From: Gemmatimonadaceae bacterium
GTDB lineage: Bacteria; Gemmatimonadota; Gemmatimonadetes; Gemmatimonadales; Gemmatimonadaceae
NCBI GenBank assembly: GCA_051859245.1
Contig: JBHYGA010000005.1
Location: 795,537-859,536 of the forward strand
Direction of reading: 5' to 3'
Length of the DNA: 64,000 nt
Numbering within the stretch: position 1 is the first letter of the stretch; each line of letters opens with the position of its first letter. Positions 37,426 through 48,657 of the stretch are shown here, in pieces. Both the position numbers and the translations under genes were made by a program. Under the pieces are notes generated by a model. The model was not told the origin of the DNA and did no database searches. It saw only the letters and a list, made by a program, of their open reading frames with translations.

Positions 37426-39021
37426 ATGTCAGACGAACGCCTTTCTCCCTCAGGAATTCCGCTGCCGGTGGCCGCCCGCCCGGCTGACGCGCCCATCGAC
37501 TACGCCAACGACCTTGGCGATCCCGGCGTGTTTCCGTACACGCGCGGCGTACAGCCCAACATGTATCGCGGCCGACACTGGACCATGCGCCAGTACGCGG
37601 GATTCGGCACGGCGCAGGCGACCAACACCCGCTTCAAGCTGTTGCTTGAAGCGGGCCAAACCGGTCTGTCGGTGGCGTTCGATCTGCCCACGCAAATGGG
37701 GCTCGATTCGAGTGACCCACGCGCGCTCGGCGAAGTGGGGCGTGTAGGTGTCGCGATCGACACTGTGGATGACATGCACACATTGCTCGACGGGATTCCG
37801 CTCGACAAAGTGTCAACATCCATGACGATCAACGCCACGGCCGCGACGTTGCTGGCCATGTACATCGTGGTGGCGGAAGAGCGGGGTATCGCACGCAGCG
37901 CACTCTCGGGCACCACGCAGAACGATATTCTCAAAGAGTACATCGCGCGCGGTACGTACATTTATCCACCGGCGCCGTCGCTTGCACTCACGGCGGAAAC
38001 GTTCAGGTTCTGCGCGCAGGAAGTGCCCAGCTGGAATCCGATTTCCATTTCGGGCTATCACATCCGTGAAGCGGGCAGTACGGCTGTACAGGAAGTGGCG
38101 TTCACGTTTGCTGATGGACTGGCGTACGTGCAACAGGCCATCGATACCGGCCTCGCGGTGGATGATTTTGCACCGCGACTGTCGTTCTTCTTTGCCGCAC
38201 ATAACGATCTGTTCGAAGAAGTGGCCAAGTTTCGTGCGGCTCGCCGTTTGTGGGCGCGGCTCATGCGCGATCGGTTCTCGGCGAACGAGAAATCATGTCG
38301 CCTTCGCTTTCACACACAAACGGGTGGTGTTACACTCACCGCGCAGCAGCCGCTGACCAACGTGGTGCGCGTCACGGTGCAAGCGCTTGCCGCGGCGCTC
38401 GGTGGCACGCAGTCACTGCACACCAACGGCTACGACGAAGCGCTCGCCCTTCCGACGGGTGAATCGGCCACGCTGGCGCTGCGCACGCAGCAGGTGATCG
38501 CGTACGAAAGCGGTCTGGCGCAAACGGTCGATCCACTCGCTGGCAGCTGGTACGTGGAGCAGCTCACCAACGAAATTGAGTCGCGTGCCATGGCGCTGAT
38601 TACGCACGTCGATGAACTCGGCGGCGCCGTGGCTGGCATTGAAGCCGGTTTCTTTCAGGACGAAATCGGACGGAGCGCCTACGCGCAACAACTGCGTATT
38701 GAGGCGGGTGAAACGGTTATCGTTGGCGTTAACAAGTTTGGTGACGGGCAGGATCCCCCAATCATTCCTGCGCCTGATTTCTCCGCGCTTGAACTGGAGC
38801 AGGTCGCGCGTTTGCGCGAGTGCAAGGCACATCGTGATGATGCCGCGGTTCAGCAGTCGTTGTCTGCGCTGCGCGCCGCGGCGCCATCGTATTTGCCGGA
38901 GCATATTGGCGAGCGCACACATCTCATGCCGCTCGTGATTGACGCGGTACGCGCGCGTGCATCGGTTGGTGAAATCGCTGCGGCGCTTGGTGAGGTGTGG
39001 GGGCGCTACCAGCCCGTGTAG
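37426..39021 (+). CDS. Methylmalonyl-CoA mutase, substrate-binding large subunit (no B12-binding domain)
   Basis: [43 protein letters not shown]; ends without a DxHxxG domain. Confidence 0.93.
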
Positions 39022-39025
39022 CTGC

Positions 39026-40072
39026 ATGTACACCACCTGTATCTTTTGTCACGCAGCGCTCGGCGCCAACGACGTTATTGAACAGTTCCCTGTTGGCCGT
39101 CGCATCGCATTCGACGCCGATCAGGGTCGCCTGTGGGTCGTGTGTCCCAAGTGTGAACGCTGGAATCTCTCGCCGTTTGAAACACGCTGGGAAGCGATAG
39201 AAGAAGCGGAGCGTCAATACCGAAATACACGCCGCCGTGTCGCCACCGACAACATTGCCCTCGCGCGTCTGCCTGAGGGACTAGAGCTCGTGCGCATCGG
39301 TCGACCGCTCAGACCAGAGTTTGCGGCGTGGCGATACGGTGATCAGTTCGGACGTCGACGGCGGCGCCTCTTGGGCTATGGCTTGGGAGGGGCGGCATTG
39401 GCGGCGGTGGGTGTCGTCGCCGTCGGACCGGCCGTTGCGGTTGGCGCGGGATTGGGTTTTCTCCCCTCGCTCGTCAACCTCGGCAATACGCTCCTCCATT
39501 ATTCCCGTCCCGTTGCGCGTATGCATGACCGCAACGGTGACGTACTCGGACTCACTCGAAACAATCTTGTGCATGCGGAGCTGAGTGTTTTCAGTGAAAA
39601 CGCGGTCGCGCTCACTTTCGACCATCGTCGCTTCGCGCGCGACGGTGCACTATCCTCGAGGTTGGGCGTAGCCGGGAAAGGACGCGCCGAGCTACACGGC
39701 GACGAGGCACTCCGCGCGCTCGCCAGTCTGTTGCCCGCGCTTAATCGAAGTGGCGGAAGCGATCGATCCGTAGCACGAGCGGTACACGCAGTAGAAGCGG
39801 CGGGGTCAATCGGCACGTTGCTACAGCACGCGTCCAATTCTGATCGCCGGTCTCCGCTCAGCGTGGCCGCATGGTCAAGTGGGAGTACGCATCGTCATGC
39901 GCTGATCACGTACACCACACCCATGCGCCTCGCGCTCGAAATGGCGCTACACGAAGACGATGAACGCCGCGCGATGGCCGGTGAACTCGGCGCGCTCTAC
40001 GCCCGGTGGGAAGAAGCCGAGCGTGTGGCCAGGATTGCAGATGGCGAGCTGACGTCACTGCCGAACGCTTAG
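39026..40072 (+). CDS. Uncharacterised CxxC...CxxC membrane protein, paralog 1 of 4
   Basis: MYTTCIFC...CPKCERWNLSP...PEFAAWRYGDQ; Gly-rich hydrophobic hairpin; C-terminal LALEMALHEDDERRAMAGEL. Confidence 0.88.
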   Translation: MYTTCIFCHAALGANDVIEQFPVGRRIAFDADQGRLWVVCPKCERWNLSPFETRWEAIEEAERQYRNTRRRVATDNIALARLPEGLELVRIGRPLRPEFAAWRYGDQFGRRRRRLLGYGLGGAALAAVGVVAVGPAVAVGAGLGFLPSLVNLGNTLLHYSRPVARMHDRNGDVLGLTRNNLVHAELSVFSENAVALTFDHRRFARDGALSSRLGVAGKGRAELHGDEALRALASLLPALNRSGGSDRSVARAVHAVEAAGSIGTLLQHASNSDRRSPLSVAAWSSGSTHRHALITYTTPMRLALEMALHEDDERRAMAGELGALYARWEEAERVARIADGELTSLPNA

Positions 40073-40080
40073 TCAGAGCA

Positions 40081-40098
40081 ATGGACTGATCGGTCCAT
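40081..40098. promoter_or_regulatory. 18-bp near-perfect palindrome, candidate operator or hairpin
   Basis: ATGGACTGA|TCGGTCCAT, 8 of 9 positions complementary, intergenic. Confidence 0.5.
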
Positions 40099-40121
40099 CA
40101 GGCGTGGTGGGCGAGGCCGAC

Positions 40122-40134
40122 TAGTATTCTCGCC
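40122..40134 (+). promoter_or_regulatory. Putative -10 element of a leaderless transcript
   Basis: TAGTAT 7 nt upstream of ATG 40135; no Shine-Dalgarno. Confidence 0.45.
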
Positions 40135-42492
40135 ATGCGTCTCCTGTTGCTCTGTCTGCTGCTCGTCACATCGGCCCCGCTCGCTCTGGCGCAGCGTGGC
40201 GACTCGCGCGTCTATCACGCGCGCGACGGCAACACTGCCGTGGCCCTGAGCGCGCCGGTTGATGCCACCATTGTTATCGATGGCAAGCTCGATGAGCCGG
40301 TGTGGAGCAGTGCGGCCAGACTCACGGGCTTTTCCATGTACCGGCCGGTGGATCAGCAGGCCGCGCCGGATTCCACCGAGATTCTTGTCTGGTATTCATC
40401 GGCCGCGCTTCACATTGGCGTGCGTGCGTTTGAAACGCATGGCGCGGTGCGGGCAACGCTGGCAGATCGCGATCGTGTCGCCAGCGATGATCACGTGGAG
40501 ATTCATCTCGACACCTTCGATGAGCGTCGACGCGCGTTTGTCTTTATGGTGAACGCACTCGGCATTCAGGCCGACGGCACAAAAGCCGAAGGTGGTGGAT
40601 TCATTCCCGGCTCGAACGTGGCACCTGGTCAGAATGATCTGAGTCCGGACTTTCAGTGGCAGTCGCGCGGTGAGGTCACCGACTACGGCTATGAAGTGGA
40701 GCTGCGCATTCCGTTCAGCAGCCTGCGATTTCCCGAAGGCGGGCCGCAGCGTTGGGGCTTTCAGGTCATTCGCCACGTGCAACACAGCGGCTACCAGCAA
40801 ACGTGGACACCCGCGCGGCAGGGCGCCGCGTCATTCGTTGGGCAGGCCGGTTCGCTCGAAGGTCTGCGCGACATGCGACATGGTCTCGATGTGACGCTGA
40901 ATCCGGAGCTGACCACCAGCGTGGCTGGTGTGCCGGCAGTGGCTGGTTCCGGCGACGCATGGCAATACACCAACACGCCGCGCATTGGTGGCAACATTCG
41001 CGCTGGCCTCGGCAGCAACTTCGTGCTTAACGGCGCCATCCGACCGGATTTTTCGCAGGTGGAAGCAGACGCGTTGCAGGTGGCCGCCGATCCACGCTTC
41101 GCGCTCTTTTATCCCGAACGCCGTCCCTTCTTCGTGGAAGGTTCGGATCAGTTCAACGTGCCCAATACGCTGGTGTACACGCGTCGCATTGTGCAGCCGG
41201 ATGCAGCGCTCAAACTCACGGGCAGGGTAGGGCGCGGCAATATTTCGTTGCTCTCTGCGATTGAGGCCCCGGTCGCCGGCAGCAATGACAGTCGACCCAT
41301 CGCAAACATTGTACGCCTCACACGCGATTTTGACGAGCAATCGCAAGCTGGTCTGTTGTACAGCGAGCGTGTTGGCGGAGGTTCAGCGAATCGTGTCATT
41401 GGCGCAGACGTGCGACATGTGTTCGGAGGCCTGTATTTCTTGCAGCTGCAGGCCGCAACGGCAATCACGCGAGCTGCGGCGCGCACGCGCAACGGTTCGC
41501 TATGGGAAGCCACGGTCGATCGCACCGGACGTTCGTGGGGGTTCAATTACAAGCTGCTCGGCATTCAGCCCGACTTTCGTGCCGACAACGGCTTTGTCGC
41601 GCGCACGGGTTATGTGCAACCCGCGCTGAATAACCGCATCACGATTTTCGGCACACCTGGTAAGCTGTTCGAACGTTACAACGTGTTTATTGGCACCTCG
41701 GGGTTGTGGCGCTACGATGACTTCTTCGCAAGTCGGCGTGTGCTCGAAACACGCTTTAGCGCGAACAATCAGGTCACCTTTCGCAAAGGCTGGTCGGTAT
41801 CGTTCACGCCTTCGTACTCCGGCTACGCGTTTGATCCGGCTGCATTTGCCAATCTCGGCACGGGCAATGGCACGGCAACGCCCGACGCATTCGTGCCGGC
41901 GCGCCAACTCAATGCCACCAGCTTTGCCTTCTCTGTATCAACACCGCAGTTCCGCCGCTTCTTCGCATCGGCTGGGGTGACACAAGCACGCGATGTGGAT
42001 TTCGCCGAAACCACGCCGGTCGACCGCACGGCCGTGACCGCCGAGCTCACGTTGCGTCCCACGGAGCGTTTGCGCGCGAACGCAACCTACGCGAGCAACG
42101 AGTTCGTGCGCACGGCCGACGGTCTCTCAAGCTTCTCCACGCGCATTCCGCGACTGCGTGTGGAGTATCAGCTCTCGCGCTTTGTGTTTGTACGCGTGGT
42201 GTCGCAGTATGAAGCCAATCGACGCGAGCCGTTGCGCGACTATCGCACGGGACTCGCGCTGCTGGAGCGACAGTCTGACGGTACGTACGTGCCGTCCGTG
42301 CGTCGCAGCAGCAACGTACTGCGCACAGACTGGCTGTTCTCCTTTCGCCCGAGGCCAGGAACCACGCTGTTTGCGGGCTACGGGAGCAGTCTCACCGAAC
42401 CAGATGCGTTGGCGTTCAGTTCGCTGCGGCGCGCGAGCGACGGCATTTTCATTAAGGCGAGCCTGTTCTTGCAGCGAAAGGCGTTTCAGTAA
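40135..42492 (+). CDS. CBM9-like/DUF5916 outer-membrane protein
   Basis: Signal peptide; IDGKLDEPVW, VELRIPFSSLRF (CBM9-like); PDFSQVEAD, LFYPERRPFFVEG, YTRRI (DUF5916); barrel-like C-terminus. Confidence 0.85.
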   Translation: MRLLLLCLLLVTSAPLALAQRGDSRVYHARDGNTAVALSAPVDATIVIDGKLDEPVWSSAARLTGFSMYRPVDQQAAPDSTEILVWYSSAALHIGVRAFETHGAVRATLADRDRVASDDHVEIHLDTFDERRRAFVFMVNALGIQADGTKAEGGGFIPGSNVAPGQNDLSPDFQWQSRGEVTDYGYEVELRIPFSSLRFPEGGPQRWGFQVIRHVQHSGYQQTWTPARQGAASFVGQAGSLEGLRDMRHGLDVTLNPELTTSVAGVPAVAGSGDAWQYTNTPRIGGNIRAGLGSNFVLNGAIRPDFSQVEADALQVAADPRFALFYPERRPFFVEGSDQFNVPNTLVYTRRIVQPDAALKLTGRVGRGNISLLSAIEAPVAGSNDSRPIANIVRLTRDFDEQSQAGLLYSERVGGGSANRVIGADVRHVFGGLYFLQLQAATAITRAAARTRNGSLWEATVDRTGRSWGFNYKLLGIQPDFRADNGFVARTGYVQPALNNRITIFGTPGKLFERYNVFIGTSGLWRYDDFFASRRVLETRFSANNQVTFRKGWSVSFTPSYSGYAFDPAAFANLGTGNGTATPDAFVPARQLNATSFAFSVSTPQFRRFFASAGVTQARDVDFAETTPVDRTAVTAELTLRPTERLRANATYASNEFVRTADGLSSFSTRIPRLRVEYQLSRFVFVRVVSQYEANRREPLRDYRTGLALLERQSDGTYVPSVRRSSNVLRTDWLFSFRPRPGTTLFAGYGSSLTEPDALAFSSLRRASDGIFIKASLFLQRKAFQ

Positions 42493-42521
42493 AGCAAGTC
42501 AGTGTGTGCTACGCACGAAGT

Positions 42522-43379
42522 CTACTTGGCGATCACGCGCCGCTTCATATCGTAACGAGTGCCGGGGCCGAGTTTCACGAACGGCGCTGCTGCTGTCGGT
42601 TTGCTCCGATCGTGCACCGCCACATCGGCCTTGCCCAGCACTTCAAACGTGTCGCCCTGCACCACGATGGCGGTGCTTTCTGACAATCCGATCCCAATGT
42701 ATTCGGGGAACTTGTCCATCACCGGAATCAGATCGTTCCAGCGATTGCGCGCGTCAACGTGCTGGTCAATGGCGGACTTGCGCAGAAAATCGAATGCATC
42801 CTGATGCTCCGGTTCCGGCGCCATCATGATCTGCGGTCCGGCCACCGCACCGCGCACCAGATACGTGCCCTGAATCGTGGCGCCCGCCGAGCTGCCACCG
42901 ATCACGCCGCCGCGCGTGAGTACACGGTGAAATGCATGATACGATTTCGTGCCCGCGTACGAGTCCGCAATGTTCCACTGTCGCCCGCCATTAAACCACA
43001 CGCCTTTGGCGTCGAGCAGCAGCGAGCTGAACGAATCGGTATCGGCAATCTTTCGGTCATGCGTGTGCAGCATGTGCACGTTGGTGAGACCGCGTGCTTT
43101 CCACGACGCGAGCACGCGCGTTGCGTCGTAGGGAATAAGCGTGCCGTCTGGCCGCGCATTGCCGCCGGCCGTAGGAACGATCACGATCTTTGCATGCGGT
43201 CCGCCGGCGAGCTCCACAAAACGTTCGATAATGCCGGTGCCGTCCAGCTGTCCGCCCCCCGCAATCACCAGACTTCCGTTCGCTGGGCCGTGAACTGGCG
43301 CGTCTTGCGCCGGCAGTCGCACGCCGAGCAGTAGCAATCCTGTCATCAGTGGGTGCAGCAGTCGTTGCAGGCGTGACAT
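42522..43379 (-). CDS. Cyanophycinase-like peptidase (S51 family) with signal peptide
   Basis: LVIAGGG, IVPTA, WFNGGRQ, GGSSAGA (Ser), IDQH (His), GLSESTA (Glu); hydrophobic N-terminus ending LPAQ. Confidence 0.88.
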   Translation of the reverse strand: MSRLQRLLHPLMTGLLLLGVRLPAQDAPVHGPANGSLVIAGGGQLDGTGIIERFVELAGGPHAKIVIVPTAGGNARPDGTLIPYDATRVLASWKARGLTNVHMLHTHDRKIADTDSFSSLLLDAKGVWFNGGRQWNIADSYAGTKSYHAFHRVLTRGGVIGGSSAGATIQGTYLVRGAVAGPQIMMAPEPEHQDAFDFLRKSAIDQHVDARNRWNDLIPVMDKFPEYIGIGLSESTAIVVQGDTFEVLGKADVAVHDRSKPTAAAPFVKLGPGTRYDMKRRVIAK

Positions 43380-43503
43380 GCAGTCGCTCGGAGATGCGGT
43401 GTGGGTTATGGTCGGGCTCGCTCTCAATGATGGCGTGACGGCACCGTGACGTCCAGCGATGTGGGCTCTTGTTCTGATCGTGCCTGCGCACGAAGTTGCC
43501 ACG

Positions 43504-44529
43504 GTGTTTGCGACCTGCCTCTTCTGCCACAGTTCGCTCGGCGCCAATCAGAGCATCGAGCACTTCCCGGTGGGCAAACGTCTCGCGTTCGATGCGGAGC
43601 GGGGCCGGCTCTGGGCCGTGTGTCTGCGATGTGGGCGGTGGAACCTGTCGCCGCTTGAGGAACGATGGGAGGCGATTGAGGAGTGCGAGCGCGCGTATCG
43701 CGGCACCACGCAGCGCGTGTCGACGGACAACATCGCGTTGGCCCGCCTCAAGGATGGCACCGATTTGGTGCGCATCGGGCGTCCGTTGTTGCCGGAGTTC
43801 GCGGCGTGGCGGTACGGAGATCAGCTGGGGGTGCGGCGTAAACGGCATAACGCCATCGCAACAATTGGCGGCATCTCAAGCTTAGGGCACTTCGGTTTGG
43901 TAGGGTTGATGGCAGCAGATGTCGTCACCGGCGCGGGTTTCTCAATGCTTTCCATCGGCATCAACACCGTGTCGATAGCGGCGGGGAAAAAGCAGGATCG
44001 TCCGGTAACGCACGTGGCCGTGCCCGGTGTCGCACGCCTGCCCATGCGTGCGATTGAGTCTTACGACACAACGGTATCGTTCGACAATGACCGGCAGATG
44101 CGGCTCCACGTGACACTCCGCGTACCCCGGGCTCGGCTGCGTTTCTTCAGTGCGAAACAGCGTTTCACGCTCACGGGGGACGCGGCACGCAAGGGCCTGA
44201 GCAGCGCGATTGTTGGCGTGAACCATCGAGGAGCAAAGAACGCAGAAGTGAAGGCCGCGGTCGCGGAAGCAGAGCGTTCCACAACGGCGCAGACGTTGCT
44301 CGATCGTTTCGCGGAGAACGCCCGCAACAGCTCGGAGTTCTACCCCGGCGTTCTCGCTCACAAGCCCCCCGAACAACGCTTCGCCCTCGAAATGTTGCTC
44401 CACGAAGAAGACGAACGTCGCGCCATGGCGGGCGAACTCGGCGACCTCTACGCGCGTTGGCAAGACGCCGAGCGCATCGCTAACATCGCTGACGCCGAGC
44501 TTACACCACTGCCGAGCAACGAGTCGTAA
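43504..44529 (+). CDS. Uncharacterised CxxC...CxxC membrane protein, paralog 2 of 4
   Basis: GTG start aligned with the paralogs: FATCLFC...CLRCGRWNLSP...; FALEMLLHEEDERRAMAGEL. Confidence 0.88.
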   Translation: MFATCLFCHSSLGANQSIEHFPVGKRLAFDAERGRLWAVCLRCGRWNLSPLEERWEAIEECERAYRGTTQRVSTDNIALARLKDGTDLVRIGRPLLPEFAAWRYGDQLGVRRKRHNAIATIGGISSLGHFGLVGLMAADVVTGAGFSMLSIGINTVSIAAGKKQDRPVTHVAVPGVARLPMRAIESYDTTVSFDNDRQMRLHVTLRVPRARLRFFSAKQRFTLTGDAARKGLSSAIVGVNHRGAKNAEVKAAVAEAERSTTAQTLLDRFAENARNSSEFYPGVLAHKPPEQRFALEMLLHEEDERRAMAGELGDLYARWQDAERIANIADAELTPLPSNES

Positions 44530-44532
44530 CGC

Positions 44533-45546
44533 GTGTTCGCCACCTGTTTGTTCTGTCTGAAGTCGCTCGGTGCAAACCAGCGCATCGAGCACTTCCCGAT
44601 CGGCCGTCGTCTCGCGTTCGATGCGGAACGCGGTCGACTCTGGGCCGTGTGCACGAAGTGTGGCCGCTGGAATCTCACGCCACTCGAGGAACGGTGGGAA
44701 GCGATTGAGGAGTGTGAGCGGGCGTATCGCGCTGAGCGTCGTCGTGTGTCGACCGATCACATTGGTCTCGCGCGACTAAACGAGGGTACGGATCTTGTGC
44801 GTATCGGCCAACCGTTGCTGCCAGAGTTCGCGGCGTGGCGCTACGGTGAGCAACTGCGCAGCAGGCGAAAACGCTGGCTTTGGACCACGGCACTCGTGGC
44901 GGGCGCACCAGTGGCGATTCTCGCACTGCAAGGATTCGCCCTCTACCATTGGCTGGGCGTAGGCGCGTTGACCTTGGGTGGCGCGCAGATTGGCCAGAGC
45001 GTGTCTACGTTGATCGAAGCGCGTCGTCCTATCGGCAAGATCAGGCTGCCAGATGGAACGGTGGAGCCCATGATGGCGCGACACCTCGACGCGTCAGTGA
45101 TCAACGTGAGCCCCGAAGGCGACGTCAACGCTGAGATTCACTATCGCGAGCGCAGTCGCCTCGGGCCACTCACCGCGATCGATCGGGTGTTGCGAGTGAG
45201 TGGGCCTGAGGCACGACCAGTGCTTCGTGATGTGATGCCCGTGTTCAACGGCGCCGGCGGAAGCCGCCTTGAGGTGCATGAAGCAGTGCAGACCGTGCAG
45301 CACGTGGGCGACGAACTCACACTGCTCAAGCGCTACGGCGCGCATCGGCTCAATCCAGAACGCCGGAGTGGTGCCCTCAGCACATCGCGCTTCTACCTGG
45401 CCCTTGAAATGCTGCTCCACGAAGAAGACGAGCGCCGCGCCATGGCCGGCGAACTCGGAGAACTCTACGCGCGCTGGGAAGACGCCGAACGCATTGCCAA
45501 GATCGCGGACGGAGAGCTCACGGTACTCGCGAACAGCGAGACATAA
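44533..45546 (+). CDS. Uncharacterised CxxC...CxxC membrane protein, paralog 3 of 4
   Basis: Same conserved ends as the other paralogs; starts 3 nt after the paralog 2 stop. Confidence 0.9.
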   Translation: MFATCLFCLKSLGANQRIEHFPIGRRLAFDAERGRLWAVCTKCGRWNLTPLEERWEAIEECERAYRAERRRVSTDHIGLARLNEGTDLVRIGQPLLPEFAAWRYGEQLRSRRKRWLWTTALVAGAPVAILALQGFALYHWLGVGALTLGGAQIGQSVSTLIEARRPIGKIRLPDGTVEPMMARHLDASVINVSPEGDVNAEIHYRERSRLGPLTAIDRVLRVSGPEARPVLRDVMPVFNGAGGSRLEVHEAVQTVQHVGDELTLLKRYGAHRLNPERRSGALSTSRFYLALEMLLHEEDERRAMAGELGELYARWEDAERIAKIADGELTVLANSET

Positions 45547-45549
45547 CGC

Positions 45550-46572
45550 GTGTTCGCAACCTGTCTTTTTTGCCTCAAACCGCTCGGTGCCAACCAGCGC
45601 ATCGAACATTTTCCGATCGGGCGTCGCCTGGCATTCGATGCCGACCGTGGTCGTCTCTGGGCGGTGTGCACACACTGCGGACGCTGGAACCTCACACCGC
45701 TCGAAGAACGGTGGGAAGCCATTGAGGAATGTGAACGTGCGTATCGCGACGAACGTCGTCGCGTGTCAACGGATCACATTGGCCTCGCGCGTTTGAACGA
45801 CGGCACGGACCTGGTGCGCATTGGTCAACCGTTGCTGCCGGAGTTCGCGGCGTGGCGGTATGGCGAACAGTTGCGCCGTCGGGGCAAAAAGTTCGCAGCG
45901 AAGTTCGCGCTCGTGAGCGCCGCGCCGGTGGCACTCGCCGCTGGGTCACTGCTGGCGGGGAGACACTGGTTCGGCGTTGGCATGGCTTCGATCAGCGCGG
46001 TGCAGCTGACACAACTTGCCACCTCCTTCTATCAAGCTTCGCGCCCTGTTGGCCGTATCAAACTTGCCGACGGCACGCTTCAGCCGGTGAACATGCGACA
46101 AGTCGCCGCCTCCGTCATCAGCGCGACACCAGAAGGCGAGATCGACGCGAAAATTCACTTTGGTACGCGCGGCCGAACGAGTGCGTTCAAGGCGAACGAT
46201 CGCGTCCTGCATGTGAGCGGGCCTGAGGCTCGGCCGGTTTTGCGCGACGTGATTCACCTCTTCAACTATGCCGGCGCGAGTCGCCTCTCAGCGCACGAGG
46301 CGGTGCAAACCGTGCAGGAAGTGGGCGACGAACTCTCGCTGATCAAACGCTACAGCGCGCACCGAGTACGGCCCGAGCGAGGACGGGGCGCGATCCACAA
46401 TGGCAGTTTCTACCTCGCCCTCGAAATGCTCCTCCACGAAGAAGACGAACGCCGCGCCATGGCCGGCGAGCTCGGCGAACTCTATGCCCGCTGGGAAGAC
46501 GCCGAGCGCATCGCCAAAATCGTGGATGGCGAGCTCACGCCGCTGGGCACCAGCCCGGCCGCTCGCAGTTGA
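45550..46572 (+). CDS. Uncharacterised CxxC...CxxC membrane protein, paralog 4 of 4
   Basis: Same conserved ends as the other paralogs; starts 3 nt after the paralog 3 stop. Confidence 0.9.
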   Translation: MFATCLFCLKPLGANQRIEHFPIGRRLAFDADRGRLWAVCTHCGRWNLTPLEERWEAIEECERAYRDERRRVSTDHIGLARLNDGTDLVRIGQPLLPEFAAWRYGEQLRRRGKKFAAKFALVSAAPVALAAGSLLAGRHWFGVGMASISAVQLTQLATSFYQASRPVGRIKLADGTLQPVNMRQVAASVISATPEGEIDAKIHFGTRGRTSAFKANDRVLHVSGPEARPVLRDVIHLFNYAGASRLSAHEAVQTVQEVGDELSLIKRYSAHRVRPERGRGAIHNGSFYLALEMLLHEEDERRAMAGELGELYARWEDAERIAKIVDGELTPLGTSPAARS

Positions 46573-46635: not shown

Positions 46636-47001
46636 ATGCCGACTTACGAGTTTCGTTGTCCCGACGGCACGATCGTCGAAAAGTTCTTCAAAATCTCCGA
46701 AGTGCCAGACACTATTCCGTCGCCCAAGGGCGACGGCGACGCGGTGCGCATGATCACCGGCGGCGCGGGTCTCGTGTTCAAGGGCTCCGGCTTTTACATC
46801 ACGGATTACGGCAAGGACGGCAAGAAGGATCAGCGCGCCGCGCCGTCGACCACCAAGTCGGAGAGCGCGAGCTCGTTGTCGACGTCATCCGACGCGGCGC
46901 CTGCGGCCAAGTCTGATGCGAAGTCCGCGAGTGACTCCACGCCCAAGAGTGACAAGCCGGCCGCCGCAAGCACGCCGGCCACGCCGCCCAAAAAGGACTG
47001 A
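46636..47001 (+). CDS. FmdB-family zinc-ribbon-like protein with low-complexity tail
   Basis: MPTYEFRC, LVFKGSGFYITDY; S/A/K/P-rich C-terminus. Confidence 0.85.
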   Translation: MPTYEFRCPDGTIVEKFFKISEVPDTIPSPKGDGDAVRMITGGAGLVFKGSGFYITDYGKDGKKDQRAAPSTTKSESASSLSTSSDAAPAAKSDAKSASDSTPKSDKPAAASTPATPPKKD

Positions 47002-47004
47002 CCC

Positions 47005-48657
47005 TTGAATCAAGCTGAAGCGCTGCGCGCCGAAATCGCGCGCGCCGCGCGTACACTCGGTGCGCCACCTGATGTCGTGCCGCATCTCGAACGTCCGCGC
47101 GATCCGTCGTTCGGCGATTGGGCCACCAATGTGGCCATGACGCTCACCAAGCCGCTCGCGCGCAAGCCGCGTGACGTGGCCGAAGCGCTGATCGCGGCCA
47201 TGGACTTGACCAGCGTAGGCGCCACGGCCGCGGAAATCGCCGGACCTGGTTTCATCAACTTTCGCCTCGATCCAGGCTTTCAGGCCCGCGGACTGCTGCA
47301 GATTCTTGCCGCCCCCGAACAGTGGGGACGCAGCAACGTGGGGCAGGGCGCCAACGCGTGCGTGGAGTTTGTGTCGGCGAACCCCACCGGCCCGCTGCAC
47401 GTCGGACACGGTCGGCAGGCCGCGCTTGGCGACGCGATCAGTGCGTTGCTTGAAGCCACCGGCTGGAATGTGTCGCGCGAGTTTTACTACAACGATGGCG
47501 GCGTACAGATCTCGAATCTTGCACTGAGTGTGCAGGCGCGCGTACGTGAACTCGCCGGCCACGAGGCGGCGATTCCCGAGGGCGGATATCACGGTGAGTA
47601 CATCCGTGAAATCGCGTCGAACTACGTGGCGCAACATCCGCAGGATCGTGAAGGCAACGATCTGAACGCGTTGCGTGTGTTCGCCGTGGCCGCGCTCCGT
47701 CACGAGCAGGATCTTGATCTGCAAGCTTTTGGTGTGAAGTTCGACACGTACTATCTCGAAAGCTCGCTCTACACCGATGGTCGTGTTGACAGCACCGTGA
47801 AAGCGCTGCAGGCAAGTGGTCACACGTACGAAGAAGAAGGCGCGTTGTTCTTGCGCACCACCACGTTTGGCGATGACAAAGACCGCGTGATGAAAAAGAG
47901 CGCGGCCAAGGGCGGCGACTACACGTACTTTGTGCCGGACGTGGCGTACCACGTGACCAAGTGGGAGCGCGGATACACGCGCGCCATCAATGTGCAGGGT
48001 GCCGACCACCACAGCACCACCACGCGCGTGCGCGCAGGCCTGCAAGCGCTTGAGATCGGCATTCCACACGGGTATCCGGAGTATGTGCTGCACCAGATGG
48101 TCACGGTGGTGCGTGGCGGAGAAGAAGTGAAAATCTCCAAGCGCGCCGGATCGTACGTGACGGTGCGCGATCTGATTGATGATGTGGGCCGCGATGCCGT
48201 GCGCTATTTCTTTCTCATGCGCAAAGGTGATTCACAGCTGGTGTTCGATGTGGATCTCGCGCGTTCGCAGAGCGAAGAAAACCCCGTGTATTACATCCAG
48301 ATGGCGCACGCGCGTATGTGCGGCATCTTCCGCGTTGGGGAAATCGACGCCACCACGATCACGGGCGCCAACGTCGATCTCGGTGTGCTCTCGGAGCCCG
48401 CCGAAGTGGAGTTGGTGAAAGCCCTGCTCGACTATCCCGCGTTGCTCGTGGGCGCTGCCGATGCGGCCGAACCGCATCGTGTGGCCGCCTGGCTGCTTGA
48501 GACGGCGCGCCTCGCGCATTTGTGGTATCACAAGCATCACGTCCTCGGCGAACCCGAGGCAATCACCCAGGCGCGCCTTGTTCTTGCGCGCGCCACGCAG
48601 CTCGGCCTCGCTGCCGGCCTGCGCCTACTTGGCCTTACCGCTCCGGAGCGGATGTGA
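47005..48657 (+). CDS. argS: Arginine--tRNA ligase
   Basis: AGPGFINF, EFVSANPTGPLHVGHGR, GADHH, KISKRAG, NPVYYIQMAHAR. Confidence 0.97.
   Translation: MNQAEALRAEIARAARTLGAPPDVVPHLERPRDPSFGDWATNVAMTLTKPLARKPRDVAEALIAAMDLTSVGATAAEIAGPGFINFRLDPGFQARGLLQILAAPEQWGRSNVGQGANACVEFVSANPTGPLHVGHGRQAALGDAISALLEATGWNVSREFYYNDGGVQISNLALSVQARVRELAGHEAAIPEGGYHGEYIREIASNYVAQHPQDREGNDLNALRVFAVAALRHEQDLDLQAFGVKFDTYYLESSLYTDGRVDSTVKALQASGHTYEEEGALFLRTTTFGDDKDRVMKKSAAKGGDYTYFVPDVAYHVTKWERGYTRAINVQGADHHSTTTRVRAGLQALEIGIPHGYPEYVLHQMVTVVRGGEEVKISKRAGSYVTVRDLIDDVGRDAVRYFFLMRKGDSQLVFDVDLARSQSEENPVYYIQMAHARMCGIFRVGEIDATTITGANVDLGVLSEPAEVELVKALLDYPALLVGAADAAEPHRVAAWLLETARLAHLWYHKHHVLGEPEAITQARLVLARATQLGLAAGLRLLGLTAPERM

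Follow-up and report, generated by a model that had tools for sequence, protein, structure and literature searches.

An undescribed Gemmatimonadota protein family with a putative zinc ribbon, a hydrophobic hairpin and a divergent middle domain

To characterize a protein family with conserved ends and a divergent middle, we analyzed a 64-kb window of a Gemmatimonadaceae genome, which carries four of its genes (the window is the whole stretch of DNA analyzed, and all positions below are its coordinates; G-numbers denote genomes, L-numbers loci and C5 a contig). The family is real, undescribed and evolutionarily well resolved. Its members are of two types, one with a single CxxC...CxxC pair in the N-terminal domain (4-Cys) and one with a second such pair in the middle (8-Cys). 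The original prediction of four genes of about 340 amino acids (aa), three of them in an array, was borne out:

39026..40072, + strand: family gene 1 (P0001), 348 aa, 4-Cys type; positionally conserved copy, found at the same place in related genomes
43504..44529, + strand: family gene 2 (P0002), 341 aa, GTG start set by the family alignment; opens the tandem array
44533..45546, + strand: family gene 3 (P0003), 337 aa
45550..46572, + strand: family gene 4 (P0004), 340 aa, 72% identical to gene 3

A methylmalonyl-CoA mutase gene ends 4 nt ahead of gene 1, and genes 2–4 follow one another head-to-tail with 3-nt spacers. The family was first taken to have four members, a number that proved too low: whole-genome tblastn identified seven copies, every one on contig C5 (the four window genes, two others in tandem and one standing alone), and the matches between copies (E 1e-37 to 1e-143) are far from chance.

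An alignment of the four proteins confirmed C5, C8, C40, C43 and the motifs WNLxP, RWEAIEE, LVRIGxPL and PEFAAWRYG in all of them, as well as the RP, NxxG and AV anchors and the acidic C-terminal block (4/4). Two details of the first description had to be amended, as gene 1 has RIAFD in place of RLAFD, and the arginine patch is a mixed R/K patch in genes 2–4. Pairwise aa identity is 69–95% in the N block, 13–34% in the hairpin, 17–60% in the middle and 79–98% in the C block.

No characterized family or fold was found for these proteins, as first stated. Pfam and NCBIfam gave weak matches only, none above the curated cut-off, for the four window proteins, 70 of the 144 aligned homologues and 32 8-Cys members; the best matches of the latter were generic zinc ribbons (DZR in 7/32, best E 0.0099). 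A PDB sequence search with three profiles returned nothing under E 0.048, and the fold search with the whole model (Foldseek against PDB and BFVD, VIA wide, VIA re-rank) had no standout (best Z 3.3). The best structural match of the isolated N domain was the eIF5/eIF2B zinc ribbon (PDB 2e9h; Z 3.4, root-mean-square deviation (rmsd) 2.9 Å, 50 residues aligned), a weak, background-level match reflecting only a generic C4 ribbon. The ESM Atlas gave unnamed clusters only, with Gemmatimonadota as the commonest taxon and no usable named match for the N domain, and PHROGs gave a weak match in 1/10. Three long matches that resembled fused forms were read, on weak evidence, as frameshift or read-through joins to neighbours rather than recurring fusions. 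No paper on the family was found in titles and abstract beginnings (supplements and subscription journals excluded); a cluster identifier in a large catalogue of unknown genes is possible. Overall, neither family nor architecture matched any named family, fold or paper in searches that left out InterPro and AlphaFold DB. We rate both as categorically new, a rating that covers neither mechanism nor proof of a new fold.

Domain architecture and origin of the variable core

The computed order of parts is a C4 domain, a basic patch, a hydrophobic hairpin, a second zinc-ribbon-type domain and a long acidic helix. In gene 1, these parts map as follows:

39026..39340, + strand: residues 1–105, C4 zinc-ribbon-like domain with a helix, a three-strand meander and the WRYG motif; most conserved block
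39368..39496, + strand: residues 115–157, uncharged Gly/Ala-rich hairpin with a basic patch on either side; evolves fastest (ratio of nonsynonymous to synonymous substitution rates (dN/dS) 0.29)
39506..39805, + strand: residues 161–260, second domain, cysteine-less homologue of the second C4 (putative zinc) domain of the 8-Cys type
39626..39691, + strand: residues 201–222, length-variable loop in place of the second CxxC knuckle
39917..40054, + strand: residues 298–343, long acidic helix with the co-varying D312-R327 pair, from model and couplings

The AlphaFold2 full-length model is confident (predicted local distance difference test (pLDDT) 88, predicted template modelling score 0.78), as is that of the isolated N domain (pLDDT 84), in which strands flank the second cysteine pair. 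From its four invariant or near-invariant cysteines, we infer that the N domain binds zinc, iron being possible. In the window genes and 231 family genes, the start codon lies four residues ahead of the first cysteine, residue 2 is nearly always Tyr or Phe, and no N-terminal extension was seen. A Shine-Dalgarno-like sequence precedes 54 of 180 genes, most lacking one.

The middle keeps a conserved fold, interrupted by two loops of variable length, and its origin probably lies in the 8-Cys type, in which the second C4 site is intact. The profile of the variable middle matched the second C4 domain of the 8-Cys proteins with HHalign 97% (E 1e-10; 95.6% with a more diverse set), and the length-variable loop aligned exactly at the former second knuckle. 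No CxxC occurs at this site in any of 144 members of the window's 4-Cys type. The core is thus divergent, as first described, but it is not an arbitrary module. Within the whole model the middle also resembled the SNX17 FERM domain (PH-like; Z 2.4, rmsd 3.6 Å, 67 residues aligned; the domain was not folded alone), a match that would explain it less well than the C4 homology. The evidence that the two C4 domains form an internal repeat is borderline, though suggestive: HHalign gave 5–10% with a narrow set and 65% with a diverse one, and 1 of 80 cysteine-fixed shuffles scored as high.

One 8-Cys clade comprises 32 full-length sequences of 331–341 aa, all with four CxxC motifs at fixed positions and a well conserved middle. 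At E<=1e-60, the 8-Cys clade found between thiO and lipA is single-copy in 30/30 carrier genomes among 301. A broader 8-Cys profile matched 76/301 genomes, mostly with one copy, including 39/48 in family f7; in the window's family it gave only two weak partial matches among 70 genomes. Four genomes examined in detail (G107, G172, G265 and G092) each hold one 8-Cys gene and several 4-Cys genes. In a tree of 86 sequences and 194 conserved columns (midpoint-rooted, with no outgroup), the typical 4-Cys proteins fall into a single clade (support 0.94), next to two deeply branching 8-Cys lineages; two highly divergent sequences from G149 lie outside, and paralogs group by genome or genus. These relationships suggest that the 8-Cys form is probably the older and that the second zinc site was probably lost once, before repeated separate expansion of the 4-Cys type in many lineages. 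A single-copy distribution or uniform divergence would count against the original prediction: the 8-Cys clade is single-copy and conserved uniformly, which tells partly against it, but the 4-Cys type is multi-copy and diverges unevenly along the protein in the 144-sequence alignment.

The hairpin is an uncharged run of median length 40 residues between patches with 49% (before) and 33% (after) R/K. Of the double hydrophobic segment first described, the first half stands, the best 19-residue Kyte-Doolittle hydropathy window reaching 1.6 in 82% of 142 sequences, and the second is weak, reaching 1.6 in 6% and 1.0 in 54%. By the positive-inside rule, basic flanks mark the cytoplasmic side, and the cytoplasm is reducing. 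Because basic flanks lie on either side of the hairpin and the 8-Cys form has a cysteine-liganded site after it, both ends and the variable domain are probably cytoplasmic, the hairpin being two-pass or re-entrant. The predicted cytoplasmic location of both conserved ends is thus probably right; with a hairpin the variable domain would be cytoplasmic too and would not be a receptor for outside signals. In three 8-Cys members (L054:793-1836, L095:143-1183 and L097:844-1797), a Gly/Pro-rich, partly amphipathic segment takes the place of the hairpin. Very divergent tandem members in G149 (L124:6591-8988) have longer hydrophobic regions, possibly with more membrane helices, and adjoin menaquinone (futalosine-pathway-like) genes.

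The C-terminal helix provided a clue to oligomerization. Mean-field coupling over 424 4-Cys sequences (effective number 298) ranked D312-R327 first (z 14). Both residues occur together in 137 sequences, D alone in 5, R/K alone in 21 and neither in 239, so that 137 of 142 D312 sequences have R/K at 327; double changes were concordant in 8 and discordant in 0 of 96 sister pairs (4 and 0 in 129). The L302-I337 coupling (z 4.7) shares its antiparallel diagonal. In the model, residues 298–343 form an unbroken helix along which D312 and R327 are ~22.6 Å apart. As the two residues are coupled yet too far apart for an intrachain contact in one helix, we infer that the C-terminal helices of two subunits pair antiparallel, crossing near G319, via a D312-R327 salt bridge. 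In 133 8-Cys sequences the helix is exactly 7 residues shorter and free of Gly and Pro, an observation more in keeping with a continuous helix than with one that folds back. Branch length confounded a generic co-change test run on every pair of columns, and that test was discarded.

Distribution, selection and genomic context

Gemmatimonadota are common in soils and sediments; to our knowledge, little is known of their cell biology. All 8000 scored candidates were homologues; the family has at least 8000 sequence clusters, 2368 clusters were counted at 50% identity, and the named ones are hypothetical proteins of Gemmatimonadota. With the N-domain profile, whose tallies include one unpublished genome (G021), the family was found in 189 of 301 genomes of the phylum, with 1–13 matches each, and in all 14 relatives within the window's genus, with 2–10; four taxonomic families had no match (0/20 genomes). 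Copy number at the mutase-argS locus ranges from 1 (G010) to 5 (G005 and G008). Multi-copy repertoires, as predicted, thus recur in many relatives. The best 80 of 590 matches, in 78 loci, were titled Gemmatimonadota or a subgroup in 75 cases, 'bacterium' in two and Gammaproteobacteria in one (L194); the last has an N domain 75% identical and may reflect a mislabelled bin or a transfer. No family member was found in phage and plasmid record collections, and the sole IMG/VR match is a 28-residue chance-level stretch without family features.

Broken copies with internal deletions, truncations or frameshifts are frequent, some frameshifts being perhaps assembly errors. Two internally deleted copies (L109:6345-6734 in G107 and L122:11632-12040 in G092) both break after codon 45, just past the second CxxC. 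The reading frame of the G107 copy is preserved, giving 130 aa in which the ribbon runs straight into the C helix, and its DNA is 94–97% identical to that of a distant paralog of full length. Both could be relics or minimal regulators.

Selection differs strongly along the protein. Among the 144 homologues, which were picked by score and thus favour conserved ends, the commonest residue of a column has a mean frequency of 0.78 in the N block, 0.30 in the hairpin, 0.22–0.47 in the parts of the middle and 0.70 in the C block. Pooled dN/dS over nine ortholog pairs was 0.04, 0.29, 0.14–0.25 and 0.09, respectively. The middle is under relaxed but purifying selection, with the ends held far tighter. 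No diversifying selection was seen, no region having a dN/dS near or above 1 when pooled by region rather than by site, and the idea of a repertoire diversified by selection is not upheld. Middle identity is 83–91% in five ortholog pairs and 15–29% between subfamilies; middles stable within and divergent between subfamilies would be the pattern of fixed, different specificities.

These data bear on the possibility that the family is a structural membrane scaffold, in which the hairpin would lie in one leaflet, the oligomer would shape or patch the inner membrane, and near-equivalent paralogs would carry a middle relaxed after loss of the zinc site. The weak second hydrophobic segment suits a re-entrant hairpin, the hairpin is the least constrained region while none approaches a dN/dS of 1, broken copies are common, and the oligomer evidence fits equally well. 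However, middle subfamilies remain distinct from species to species at a dN/dS of about 0.2, hairpin-less members exist, and no PspA or Band_7 gene occurs among 182 scanned neighbours. We consider such a scaffold possible but doubtful.

Recombination of the ends was detected in the G008 array, where the N block sides with same-genome paralogs and the middle with the ortholog in 3 of 10 triples tested. In these three, N-block sites favoured the paralog over the ortholog by 31 to 11 (p 0.003), 31 to 18 and 34 to 9 (p 0.0002; binomial), while middle sites in the 31/11 and 34/9 triples were split 27 to 190 and 38 to 171. The other seven triples, the window's genes included, had no N-block flip. 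End-homogenising recombination occurs in some arrays, the window's array being without such a signal. No dedicated recombination signals or DNA repeats beyond coding similarity were evident, and 225 genes had no shared upstream or promoter motif.

The genes around the family in the window are:

37426..39021, + strand: methylmalonyl-CoA mutase N-terminal-domain gene (TIGR00641), left border of the locus
40135..42492, + strand: DUF5916 protein, in some locus versions only
42522..43337, - strand: peptidase S51, cyanophycinase-like, under the TIGR02069 cut-off
46636..48657, + strand: small unnamed gene and argS, right border of the locus

The DUF5916 gene between gene 1 and the array is present in some relatives and absent in G005 and G010. 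The S51 peptidase gene lies inside the locus here and in G002, where it has moved in, and upstream of the mutase gene in other genomes. The small gene before argS (46636-47001) is conserved, at 67–97% identity in relatives, with no Pfam match at E 1e-6; it presumably resembles an FmdB-type ribbon protein with most cysteines lost. The distant single copy of this genome (L002:7051-9998, on C5) stands among toxin-antitoxin-like small genes (HepT, nucleotidyltransferase, Uma2 and DUF2283), in what is likely an insertion hotspot.

Beyond the window, a Pfam scan of 182 of 206 called neighbours found mixed transport, hydrolase and housekeeping genes. The original prediction leaned towards immunity, and an anti-phage or anti-toxin sensor-effector, whose variable cytoplasmic domain would recognize a foreign protein and whose oligomer would damage the membrane via the hairpin, fits the lineage-specific expansion, gain, loss and relics, as well as the recombination of ends in one array. 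The main contextual point in its favour is a toxin-antitoxin-like or defence-like gene within two genes at 7/38 4-Cys loci, a hand count without matched control; L180 also lies between two PADLOC PDC-S01 matches. However, PADLOC matches were rarer beside the family (6 of 136 adjacent genes, from 76 of 78 loci) than in 20 arbitrary regions (17 of 144 genes; Fisher p 0.03 towards fewer), in a comparison where gene calls came from a codon score and were trimmed to 450 aa, both sets contained housekeeping cross-matches and the control matches clustered in few islands. No scanned member can be said to match PADLOC, the 32 8-Cys members giving only four single-member matches at E 0.0046 or above in PADLOC 2.0 (a scan without the four window proteins). 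The lack of family members in phage and plasmid records, the single-copy 8-Cys form at housekeeping loci and the lack of positive selection also speak against this role, which we find unlikely and for which the context lends no support.

The sites of the 8-Cys genes raise another possibility: as accessory factors, the proteins would help cofactor-dependent acyl-CoA enzyme complexes to mature, or tether them, at the membrane. In f2 and f3, the 8-Cys gene follows thiO in 30/30 loci and precedes lipA(-pdhA) in 28/30, the other two ending at a contig edge. A hairpin-less 8-Cys gene lies between carboxyltransferase and biotin carboxylase genes on one strand (L054), a carboxyltransferase gene also occurs at L095, and gene 1 directly follows methylmalonyl-CoA mutase. 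However, the 30 thiO-lipA genomes are one related group and not independent, the commonest 8-Cys site in f7, seen in several genomes, is between trpG and nadE on opposite strands, the mutase is a neighbour in only 3/78 further loci, and the lipA-pdh cluster of the window's own genome lacks a family gene, making such a factor quite improbable. The thiO-lipA proteins (L033-L036, L058-L086) nearly all end in QP(D/S/N)(S/G) just before lipA, which may reflect a DNA-level signal.

The least probable reading is a one-component signalling protein, anti-sigma-like or a redox or metal sensor, whose cysteine sites would lose their zinc under stress and alter the oligomer. A membrane anchor combined with one or two invariant C4 sites would fit, but ZAS anti-sigma factors have an HxxxCxxC motif and an adjacent extracytoplasmic function sigma factor gene, and the family lacks this motif and has no sigma factor among the 182 scanned neighbours. 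The missing upstream motif also argues against it, as would the lack of a periplasmic domain if the hairpin model holds; we regard it as very unlikely.

Proposed function and known systems

Our preferred reading, a tentative one, is an oligomeric adaptor tethered to the membrane on its cytoplasmic side, in which the assembly surfaces are constant and the binding domain differs between subfamilies. The hairpin would anchor the protein in the inner membrane with both ends inside, and the constant ends would be surfaces that assemble subunits, probably of different paralogs too. The second domain and its loops would bind a cytoplasmic or membrane client differing by subfamily, so that the paralog set of one genome would provide several specificities on one scaffold. 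The homology of the second domain to an intact C4 domain favours the cytoplasmic location.

Several observations weigh against this adaptor model. The second hydrophobic segment is weak, and the hairpin is absent in L054, L095 and L097 (by eye) and in P0267. The D312-R327 contact could form within one chain if the helix folds back at G319, and couplings between N block and C helix (e.g., E87-A338 and F21-V334) are not enriched (8 of the top 60 vs 6.3 expected). Window genes 3 and 4 have no N-block flip (15 vs 22 sites, p 0.32). There is no travelling partner gene, the commonest neighbour cluster occurring in only 8 of 78 further loci, and 8-Cys copies occupy different loci in different families. 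Finally, the family was not found in 112/301 genomes of the phylum and is therefore dispensable.

A more specific proposal is a hitherto unknown, class-wide repertoire of intracellular receptors with a new fold, derived from a conserved 8-Cys membrane scaffold, in which the zinc-less second domain would be an exchangeable recognition cassette, paralogs would co-assemble by a swapped C helix, recombination of the ends would shuffle cassettes, and binding of a host client or phage protein would trigger a membrane-level response. We consider it rather unlikely. The family is found in most searched genomes of its class and has a confident model for which no structural relative was found, and it would illustrate how a single-copy two-zinc protein can become a variable repertoire through loss of a metal knuckle. 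If the paralogs were only redundant scaffolds, its meaning would be more modest, that of a new fold and a phylum marker.

Among known systems, the adaptor model resembles LapB (YciM) of E. coli, a homodimer whose transmembrane helix binds FtsH and whose tetratricopeptide repeat (TPR) and two-CXXC rubredoxin domains bind LpxC (PMC11046580). Both would be membrane-anchored homodimers with a cytoplasmic two-CXXC domain, and LapB links a cytoplasmic client to a membrane protease, a role of the kind proposed for the family (PMC11046580). However, LapB runs from an N-terminal transmembrane helix through TPR to a C-terminal rubredoxin, whereas in the family a C4 domain comes first, the hairpin is central and no TPR match was found, and LapB did not appear among its sequence or fold matches. 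With YdjG of B. subtilis, the family shares only the description of a transmembrane protein that carries a zinc ribbon; the pspA-ydjGHI operon, which encodes YdjG, also encodes PspA and a band 7 protein (PMC9239133), neither of which was found among the scanned neighbours of the family.

GltJ of Myxococcus xanthus and ZitP of Caulobacter are membrane proteins whose N-terminal zinc ribbon, of the C4 kind (C5, C8), binds protein partners, and the family has a putative ribbon at the same end; in GltJ, the ribbon binds a C-terminal helix of MglB and the linker of its own chain (PMC11135422). Its second cysteine pair is C28/C31 in that source, compared with C40/C43 in the family, which has a second zinc-type domain after the hairpin. 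The family gave no match to a GYF domain or to any other part of GltJ, and no motility genes were seen among the scanned neighbours. By analogy, the family may work like LapB or GltJ, as a member of neither.

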